Source of the DNA: an uncultured bacterium
GTDB taxonomy: Bacteria; Patescibacteriota; Minisyncoccia; Phycocordibacterales; PALSA-1337
Assembly (NCBI GenBank): GCA_963701025.1
Contig: OY969557.1
Span: 170,405 to 234,404 of the forward strand
Length of the DNA: 64,000 nucleotides
Direction: 5' to 3'
In this document: one piece after another, positions 37,541 to 37,734 of the stretch
Layout: each line of letters starts with the position of its first letter
Numbering within the stretch: the stretch's first letter is position 1
Notes under the pieces: generated by a model
Told to the model about the DNA's origin: nothing
Seen by the model: only the letters and a program-made list of their open reading frames with translations
The model's database searches: none
Position numbers and translations under genes: made by a program

Positions 37541-37734
37541 TCCTCGCATGCCACATGGGAATGATGTGATTTTTGAAATTTGTTCTGTAAAGGGGATTCG
37601 CCTGTTATTTATCGCAAGAAAAATTTAACGCAAATTTTTCTTGCTCGGGGAGCTCACCCCTTGACAGAACAAATTCTCAAAAATACTGATCCTCATATGG
37701 CATGCGAGGGACACCCGCATACCAGATGTGGTCG
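37541..37734. repeat. ~190-bp nested imperfect palindrome (origin or packaging-signal candidate)
   Basis: Outer arms CCTCGCATGCCAYATG, middle arms AATTTGTTCTGTMAAGGGG, inner perfect arms GCAAGAAAAATTT-aacgc-AAATTTTTCTTGC. Confidence 0.5.

Follow-up and report, generated by a model that had tools for sequence, protein, structure and literature searches.

A long conserved hairpin between the coat-like and pIII-like genes of a filamentous-phage-like prophage of a candidate-phyla-radiation bacterium: a possible complementary-strand origin

What does a long nested palindrome do between the coat-like and pIII-like genes of a prophage? The question is raised by a 64,000-nt stretch of contig OY969557.1 (positions 170,405 to 234,404; referred to as the window, in whose numbering positions are given unless a relative is named), which carries an inovirus-like (filamentous-phage-like) prophage, partly decayed, of a candidate-phyla-radiation bacterium. 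The palindrome is a real non-coding hairpin under selection. It is read here, with a probability of about 0.38, as a cis-acting complementary-strand (minus) origin of the single-strand origin (sso) or single-stranded-promoter kind; this and the other functional readings below are drawn from structure, conservation, distribution and analogy.

The three inverted-repeat tiers described in an earlier note on this DNA are all in place and share a single centre near 37629. They are an outer tier, CCTCGCATGCCAYATG (37542-37557 on the plus strand and 37694-37709 on the minus strand), a second tier, AATTTGTTCTGTMAAGGGG (37577-37595 on the plus strand and 37657-37675 on the minus strand), and a perfect 13-nt pair, GCAAGAAAAATTT (37614-37626 and 37632-37644). 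In a repeat search, the arms of each tier proved unique to the palindrome within the window, and two matches were reached by 0, 0 and 1 of 100 shuffles for the three tiers, respectively. The nested palindrome itself thus stands, with its length reduced from the 190 bp given before to 176 nt (Table 1), and 37714-37734 belongs to the spacer. The folding proposed in the earlier note, performed for single-stranded DNA on both strands of 37520-37760, yields one hairpin of -63 and -61 kcal/mol (z = -10.8 and -10.1), and none of 200 shuffles was equally stable. The 176-nt hairpin alone accounts for about -50 kcal/mol. From the coat stop codon to the pIII-like start codon, the entire 267-nt spacer has a fold of -70.5 kcal/mol (z = -10.1) made up of two elements, a G+C-rich hairpin and the long hairpin; the latter is the most stable 180-nt single-strand fold of the window element, and in each relative carrying it, it is also the top 180-nt fold (z -4.9 to -7.1). 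That no open reading frame (ORF) explains the stretch has been borne out: the ORFs crossing it (38-83 aa) have neither a Pfam match nor a counterpart in the sister lineage, and with no conserved ORF a coding explanation was dropped. A repeated or mobile palindrome of the MITE/REP-like kind was also rejected, as there is a single copy in the window and one per related locus.

Eleven copies of this type (W type) beyond the window were obtained by Rep-based and pIII-based searches of metagenomes (L007, L009, L010, L014, L018, L046 and L049-L053). The metagenome-assembled genomes that contain relatives are labelled Saccharibacteria, Paceibacterota and Taylorbacteria. The palindrome is present at the identical position, and is non-coding, in 11 of the 11 further copies, so that the comparison with related elements called for earlier also favours it. 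In the first six copies, 95.5% of the palindrome columns are invariant; the corresponding figures are 71% in the coat gene, 32% at its fourfold-degenerate sites and 42% at the beginning of the pIII-like gene. Across the 12 copies, standard pairs fill 96.5% of the pair cells, compared with 36-51% when the partners are slid by 1-3 columns, and the covariation score is matched or beaten by only 3 of 500 shuffles. Two changes on both sides keep pairing, UA to CG in the middle helix of L052 and CG to UA in the apical helix of L049, and a conserved C·T mismatch in the middle helix is turned into C-G in L051 and L052. In the outer helix 17 of 22 pairs are invariant and 95.5% of cells are paired; the apical helix is 100% paired. 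Invariant positions amount to 106 of 122 (87%) where bases are paired and 26 of 48 (54%) where they are unpaired (Fisher p = 1e-5), and in the coat gene of the same eleven sequences they amount to 8 of 39 fourfold-degenerate sites (21%) and 141 of 168 codon positions 1 and 2 (84%). A bulged G at 37676 varies freely (G/C/T), and the internal and apical loops vary too; the apical loop region reads TTGCGT in 10 of 12 copies, AATGC in L051 and GCATT in L052. Retained pairing, compensatory changes and stems steadier than loops indicate that the fold itself is under selection, while the stem sequence is strongly constrained as well.

Stems conserved in sequence beyond pairing, together with two strands that fold equally well, would also suit a double-stranded palindromic site, on whose symmetric half-sites a dimeric or oligomeric protein (a regulator, or a partition-like or nucleoid protein) sits without the hairpin ever forming; a 62-aa Cys/His-containing protein encoded at 38642-38830 and found in both lineages is a possible binder. 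This explanation is improbable, because compensatory changes and a 7-to-1 excess of G·T over A·C are expected of a folded single strand and not of half-sites, because unpaired positions evolve faster than paired ones, and because an operator of 176 bp would be unusual. The excess also bears on the strand: in the 12 copies G·T occurs at seven pair positions on the gene-sense strand versus one on the opposite strand (binomial about 0.035), and the folded strand is probably the gene-sense strand, either as viral DNA or as RNA. Two other strand criteria were discarded. Folding energies differ too little and with a sign inconsistent across lineages, and a T-rich sense strand, taken as a sign that it is the viral one, is seen in the window (T 32%, A 25%) but not in L007 or L001.

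A sister lineage (L type), represented by three IMG/VR contigs and their metagenome twins (L001-L005, L013, L016, L019 and L021), is close to the window in Rep (84-87% identity) and integrase (about 75%), and is only 24% identical in the Zot-like protein, with a different coat protein (61 aa). It has a hairpin in the same place (about 163 nt, -46 to -49 kcal/mol), the top fold of each contig. Its middle tier resembles that of the window at 28 of 41 and 27 of 41 positions; the sequences of its outer and apical stems are unrelated to those of the window, with pairing retained. More distant relatives are different. With L-type morphogenesis genes, L012 (Rep 60% to the window) has an unstructured coat-pIII spacer (z = -1.3), and L020 (Rep 64%) has a tRNA-like cloverleaf with smaller hairpins (z = -6.3). 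With a W-like Zot, L043 and L045 (Zot 67-71% identity; Rep 28% and 35%) have shorter unrelated hairpins (57 nt in L045), and L044 (Zot 66%; no Rep match found) has an unrelated 84-nt hairpin; in L044 and L054 the main structured region is located after Zot. The palindrome is accordingly found with Reps of at least 83% identity in spite of a Zot identity of 24% and is missing where a morphogenesis module is shared but Rep is a different one, and it therefore tracks the Rep, integrase or host group rather than the virion-assembly module. Among the relatives it behaves like an exchangeable cassette. A degenerate arm pattern run against IMG/VR for further palindrome types returned the three known loci and chance hits only, and Zot-profile searches gave nothing new that spans the spacer.

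This distribution also bears on the possibility of a packaging (morphogenetic) signal, that is, a viral-strand hairpin kept free of the phage single-strand-binding protein and recognised at the membrane by tip proteins and the Zot/pI-like ATPase to start assembly. Every filamentous phage needs such a signal, which in the Ff phages is an imperfect viral-strand hairpin contacting pVII and pIX (PMC10175506). The element has one dominant hairpin, the long one, which is strongly conserved, under selection for pairing and located inside the structural gene block; the two lineages, with their different morphogenesis proteins, also have different outer and apical tiers. On the other hand, the hairpin is absent both from relatives with an L-type module (L012 and L020, Zot 57-70% identical to that of L001) and from those with a W-like module (L043-L045, Zot 66-71%), whereas a long palindrome whose middle tier is similar occurs in each of the two lineages with a Zot identity of 24%. 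The length of the hairpin, 176 nt, is also more than twice that of the Ff signal (about 78 nt). A packaging role is conceivable, with odds well below even, and the same hairpin could serve as a packaging signal in addition to another function.

A complementary-strand origin is preferred in view of the extreme fold, the selection on pairing and the sense-strand G·T bias described above, and also because the size and shape of the hairpin match those of authentic single-strand origins (pT181 and pE194), its distribution fits a cassette tied to replication or to the host rather than to virion proteins, and the plus origin is better placed next to rep. When the DNA exists as a free circular single strand, after infection or upon displacement by rolling-circle replication, the 176 nt would fold into a duplex-like stem that stays clear of single-strand-binding protein and resembles double-stranded DNA to a host enzyme. 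Host RNA polymerase (or primase) would then bind the conserved stem and make a short primer, from which host DNA polymerase would rebuild the double-stranded replicative form. A possible entry point is a -35-like TTTACA in the middle helix with CATCAT exposed in the internal loop 19 nt further on; synthesis would be directed to the foot of the hairpin, with the 5' arm as template. At 37586-37591, a match of at least 5/6 to TTGACA is found in 15 of 15 distinct palindromes (TTTACA, TTGATA, TTGACG, TTGACT and TTGACA), and the -10-like hexamer varies to CATAAT in L049 and to CACCAT in L052.

Such an element has counterparts in better-known replicons. According to the literature, ssoA is about 160 nt long, relies on RNA polymerase for priming, has no fixed position and is exchanged in the manner of a cassette (PMC5703833, PMC4595007). 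When folded with the same parameters, the palA/ssoA sequences of pT181 and pE194 give imperfect hairpins of about 150 nt with -38 to -40 kcal/mol, compared with -43 to -50 for the present hairpins. In the case of ssoA/palA (pT181, pE194, pMV158) as in the present one, a replicon that encodes an HUH Rep carries an imperfect non-coding hairpin of about 150-180 nt, within the ssoA size range of roughly 130-200 nt for such hairpins in rolling-circle replicons; a flexible position relative to rep and a cassette-like presence or absence among relatives are also shared. The present element differs in that the host is a candidate-phyla-radiation bacterium and not a Firmicute, and in that the replicon is a filamentous-phage-like prophage. 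For the minus strand of Ff phages, RNA polymerase recognises a promoter-like hairpin for priming. The Ff (f1/M13/fd) intergenic hairpins, [A] for packaging and [B] and [C] for the minus origin, are likewise structured non-coding DNA of a filamentous phage, in which a larger structured region comes after a small hairpin on the viral strand; unlike these, the present structure is one 176-nt hairpin instead of several shorter ones, is located between the coat and pIII-like genes and not between genes IV and II, and is accompanied by a Rep of another family (PF23343). The Ff-type location, from the last morphogenesis gene to the replication gene, corresponds to the Zot-rep spacer, which holds a different conserved block. 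Frpo/ssi hairpins act as single-stranded promoters by mimicking a duplex for host RNA polymerase (PMC11541004), and here also a -35-like hexamer lies in the duplex and a -10-like one in an internal loop; in contrast to Frpo/ssi, the hexamer quality and the 19-nt spacing fall below promoter criteria, there is no plasmid similarity, and the product would be a primer and not a phage-gene message if the packaged strand is the sense strand. A long imperfect single-stranded DNA hairpin in an element with a tyrosine recombinase is also reminiscent of attP(+) of the CTX phage and attC of integrons. A folded attP or attC was rejected, since the hairpin is about 1.5 kb inside the prophage and is flanked by conserved phage genes in every integrated copy, away from the phage-host junctions.

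Several results weigh against a complementary-strand origin. The promoter likeness is weak, with hexamers of 5/6 and 4/6 and a 19-nt spacer as against the 16-18 nt of the consensus scan, and that scan flagged nothing inside the palindrome, whereby a canonical promoter there was rejected. The RSB consensus TTATGCCGAGAAAAYTT is not present at the 5' base, where only an interrupted CCGAG..AAAAATTT near the apex comes close, and CS-6 (TAGCGT/A) is not conserved in the terminal loop, in which TTGCGT occurs in 10 of 12 copies and the L-type loops differ again. RSB and CS-6 are known as ssoA motifs (PMC4598088), and RSB at the base and CS-6 in the loop were found in the pT181 and pE194 ssoA; membership of the ssoA family was given up, as the resemblances (CCGAG..AAAATTT and TTGCGT) are misplaced and unconserved. 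A search of 72,556 plasmid records at E up to 10 gave only chance hits of 26-37 nt, and one of 50,697 phage records gave no significant match, to the Ff/Ike intergenic region or otherwise. Local alignment of the two palindrome types exceeds chance only modestly (z = 2.3; reached by 13 of 500 shuffles). In the three sister-lineage copies the G·T asymmetry is reversed (1 versus 2), and the fold energies of the two strands lie within a few kcal/mol with a sign that differs between lineages. The structureless spacer of L012 shows that the long hairpin is dispensable there. Finally, Ff phages have a terminator at this very site, directly behind the coat gene.

The last point leads to an RNA-level or transcriptional boundary, in which the hairpin would make RNA polymerase stop or pause, or would be a substrate for a double-strand-specific RNase, so that the abundant coat message is parted from the low-level pIII/pVI/Zot message. 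Its place exactly between the coat and pIII-like genes would suit this, as it does the Ff gene VIII terminator, which follows the major coat gene and precedes gene III. Distant relatives also have hairpins at the coat-pIII spot, the rep-upstream motif at the 3' foot of the hairpin suggests a new start of transcription or translation, and the sense-strand G·T bias suits RNA as well as viral DNA. Unlike the gene VIII terminator, the present hairpin has no T-run, is ten times longer and is constrained in sequence, and its length is far above that of known intrinsic terminators. A terminator scan of 33000-39900 lists no site in 37509-37775, and neither of the two hairpins is followed by a T-run. 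The stems, 87% invariant like coat codon positions 1 and 2 (84%), exceed what a terminator or a cleavage stem needs, and the coat stop codon is already followed by the small G+C-rich hairpin, which the earlier note had overlooked. The latter has a compensatory change of T-A to C-G among the copies (GGTCGGCGG...CCGCCGACC versus GCCGGCG...CGCCGGC) and is judged the better terminator candidate of the two. A boundary function of the long hairpin is therefore considered unlikely. Rfam gave no match at E up to 1 in 24000-41000; the sole hit in L001, to a miRNA, was at chance level (32.7 bits, threshold 107 bits). A known RNA family was set aside.

HUH Reps often nick at hairpins, and the earlier note had suggested that a nick site of the two-Tyr Rep be looked for. 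In this reading the palindrome would be extruded as the plus-strand (double-strand) origin and nicked in it or beside it to start and end rolling-circle replication. The long palindrome is confined to elements with Reps of at least 83% identity, CTTGAC in the middle tier resembles the pC194 core CTTGATA, and in the sister lineage CTAGACTGACC, a near-copy of the rep-upstream box, abuts the palindrome at the foot of the hairpin. A better-placed candidate exists, however. The 35-nt block at 35065-35099 (TTTCTAGACTYGACCTCTMTCACACWTAATCAGAA) lies directly upstream of rep, the usual place of a double-strand origin, and is kept in 13 of 13 Rep-bearing loci, including L012 and L020 (60-64% Rep identity), which have Rep and the box and no palindrome; it is the sole non-coding block conserved across every Rep-bearing relative. 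It contains ACT(C/T)GAC and a CATAAT/CTTAAT box. Reps of this type presumably nick after the G of the origin core. The ACTTGAC core of the block is similar to the origin core of pC194, CTTGATA (PMC7072734). Moreover, the sense strand of the window type reads CTTTAC and not CTTGAC in 10 of 12 copies, and the window type is without a copy of box A at the palindrome. From sequence comparison, the block appears to be a better plus-origin candidate than the palindrome, for which this function is quite improbable. Partial copies of the block upstream of the pIII-like gene suggest that the block could act as a promoter or leader signal, in addition to or in place of an origin. Thus, of the proposal that the palindrome is an origin or packaging signal, the general class still offers the best explanation, its function being deduced, and the nick-site version is the least likely part. 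At 33987-34085, the 11-nt direct repeat TGATAAANTTT recurs about nine times in an iteron-like array with a spacing of one helical turn. It lies in a rep-integrase stretch of about 420 nt that is found in the window copy only, the integrase gene beginning about 20-40 nt after rep in all relatives; as an origin it was rejected, because this stretch is peculiar to the window and missing from relatives.

The genes around the hairpin support the context that the earlier note had assigned to it, namely coat-like and pIII-like genes together with a two-Tyr HUH Rep. All genes of the element are on the minus strand, in the order small ORFs, coat-like, spacer, pIII-like, pVI-like, Zot/pI-like ATPase, HUH Rep and integrase (Table 1). 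Rep matches PF23343 (E = 1.1e-22) and phrog_3419 (E = 1.3e-25) and has the two-Tyr HUH motifs GAVHYHAVFF ... YVSKY. The L-type Zot is above the Pfam threshold (33.3 bits versus 20.3), and the W-type Zot matches phrog_20922 at 4e-8 and 'protein I of M13' at 7e-5. A pI/Zot-family ATPase, a rolling-circle Rep and small membrane coat proteins, by which inovirus-like elements are defined, are thus all present. The coat, pIII and pVI assignments are from features and gene order only; family searches with the coat-like protein (83-90% identity in relatives) gave nothing beyond chance. The N-terminal half of the pIII-like protein (37000-37508, the 5' half of the gene) is hypervariable, with 42% invariant columns in the first 70 nt, and its overall identity is 61-75% as compared with 84-90% for the coat, as expected of a receptor-binding domain. 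The decay of the prophage is seen in the shortened Zot-like ATPase and in Rep, whose frame runs on past a stop codon; the palindrome is still intact.

Table 1. Features of the prophage region in the window, in order of position
Feature	Position	Strand	Remarks
Tyrosine integrase	33057..33923	-	PF00589, E = 1.2e-28
HUH rolling-circle Rep, shortened	34344..35045	-	233 aa versus 265-268 aa in closest relatives
Conserved block TTTCTAGACTCGACCTCTCTCACACTTAATCAGAA	35065..35099	-	immediately ahead of rep; possible plus origin and/or rep promoter
Zot/pI-like P-loop ATPase, shortened	35293..35811	-	172 aa versus 233 aa in closest relatives
pVI-like 88-aa membrane protein	35839..36105	-	gene order and conservation only
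pIII-like gene, 468 aa	36102..37508	-	signal peptide, Ser/Thr-rich, C-terminal anchor; downstream neighbour of the hairpin
Motif CAATCAGAATTATTA at the 3' foot of the hairpin	37525..37539	-	17 nt ahead of the pIII-like start codon; near-copy of the rep-upstream motif
Long imperfect hairpin, three-tier palindrome	37538..37713	-	centre near 37629; inverted repeats, single-stranded DNA folds, conserved in 11 further loci
Outer helix, 3' arm TCCCATGTGGCATGCGAGG	37542..37560	-	fold and pair table
Candidate -10-like hexamer CATCAT	37561..37566	-	mostly in the loop between middle and outer helices; 19 nt beyond the -35-like hexamer
Middle helix, 3' arm CCCCTTTACAGAACAAATTTCAAAAATCAC	37566..37595	-	fold and pair table
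Candidate -35-like hexamer TTTACA	37586..37591	-	duplex of the middle helix, 3' arm
Large internal loop, 3' side, below the apical hairpin	37596..37613	-	varies among relatives
Apical perfect 13-bp hairpin, 5-nt loop GCGTT (sense strand)	37614..37644	-	inverted repeat
Large internal loop, 5' side	37645..37656	-	fold
Middle helix, 5' arm GTATTTTTGAGAATTTGTTCTGTCAAGGGG	37657..37686	-	partner 37566-37595; 29 pairs
Outer helix, 5' arm, gene-sense strand, CCTCGCATGCCATATG-A-GGA	37690..37709	-	partner 37542-37560
Separate G+C-rich hairpin	37730..37770	-	5 nt past the coat stop codon; no T-run behind
Coat-like gene, 84 aa	37776..38030	-	hydrophobic core, basic C-terminus; upstream neighbour of the hairpin; features and gene order

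The element is within a low-G+C island of about 25.0-39.4 kb in a genome of about 52% G+C, with gltX, murG and ftsW as neighbours. The island also carries DNA methyltransferase-like genes (29848-32067) and a 512-aa uncharacterised protein. At both of its edges a 13-nt direct repeat, ATGTCGCACAATA, is found (25060-25072 and 39400-39412), which is not statistically significant alone (E about 0.4); the two repeats may be attachment (att) sites of a 14-kb composite island. Integrated relatives share a site downstream of gltX, an M23 peptidase gene and a small membrane-protein gene, which is seen at 39468-41181 of the window and in the host flanks of L004, L007, L009, L011, L012, L016 and L018; in L011, a broken Rep remnant stands alone at the gltX site. 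Host GluRS is 44-60% identical between the loci versus 83-87% for the phage Rep, which suggests that the elements have spread recently among hosts that are themselves diverged.

Close behind the integrase gene, at 32842-33032, lies a non-coding stretch of about 190 nt that is conserved across lineages, with counterparts in L009 (9237-9427 and 14619-14812), L001 (5894-6092) and L002 (6703-6893). A second copy in L009, 5 kb further on, has 94.8% identity to it, and the versions of L001 and L002 have 24-28-nt inverted repeats spaced by 135-151 nt. It may be an attachment region or an unrecognised RNA. In L002, a DUF3800-V RNA (Rfam RF02964, 75.6 bits) adjoins the integrase end at 6957-7052. Few proteins are shared by both lineages, Rep, the integrase and the 62-aa Cys/His-containing protein among them; the last, with 34-42% identity in L002, L003, L012 and W-type loci, could be a DNA-binding factor. 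A complete tRNA-Val gene (49-51 bits in Rfam; anticodon GAC or TAC) separates the coat gene from the palindrome in the 6-7 kb elements of the sister lineage, at 1954-2027 in L002, 1889-1961 in L003, 4934-5007 in L019 and 4886-4958 in L016; a tRNA gene is unusual in a filamentous-phage-like genome. The cloverleaf of L020 (about 4536-4602) is not called by ARAGORN, and only a T-arm-like remnant is found in L001 (about 880-945).

Knowledge of the filamentous phages of candidate-phyla-radiation bacteria is limited to catalogues (PMC6813254), and no cis-acting signals have been described for them so far. For one such phage group, the most constrained non-coding element now has exact coordinates, a fold backed by evidence and a collection of naturally occurring variants. 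Tentatively, the hairpin might stand for a new class of sso/Frpo-like elements, unrelated to them in sequence, read by the RNA polymerase of candidate-phyla-radiation bacteria and swapped as a cassette between the filamentous phages of these hosts. If it were a transcript boundary only, it would be an ordinary element. If it is a single-stranded DNA promoter or origin, it would be the first defined cis-acting replication signal usable for phagemid-type vectors in these hosts. Either as a minus origin or as a packaging signal, it would be needed, together with the rep-proximal block, for phagemid-like shuttle constructs in Saccharibacteria-type hosts, which are poor in genetic tools, and it would show whether the RNA polymerase of a host with a reduced genome reads hairpin promoters as in Escherichia coli and Firmicutes.

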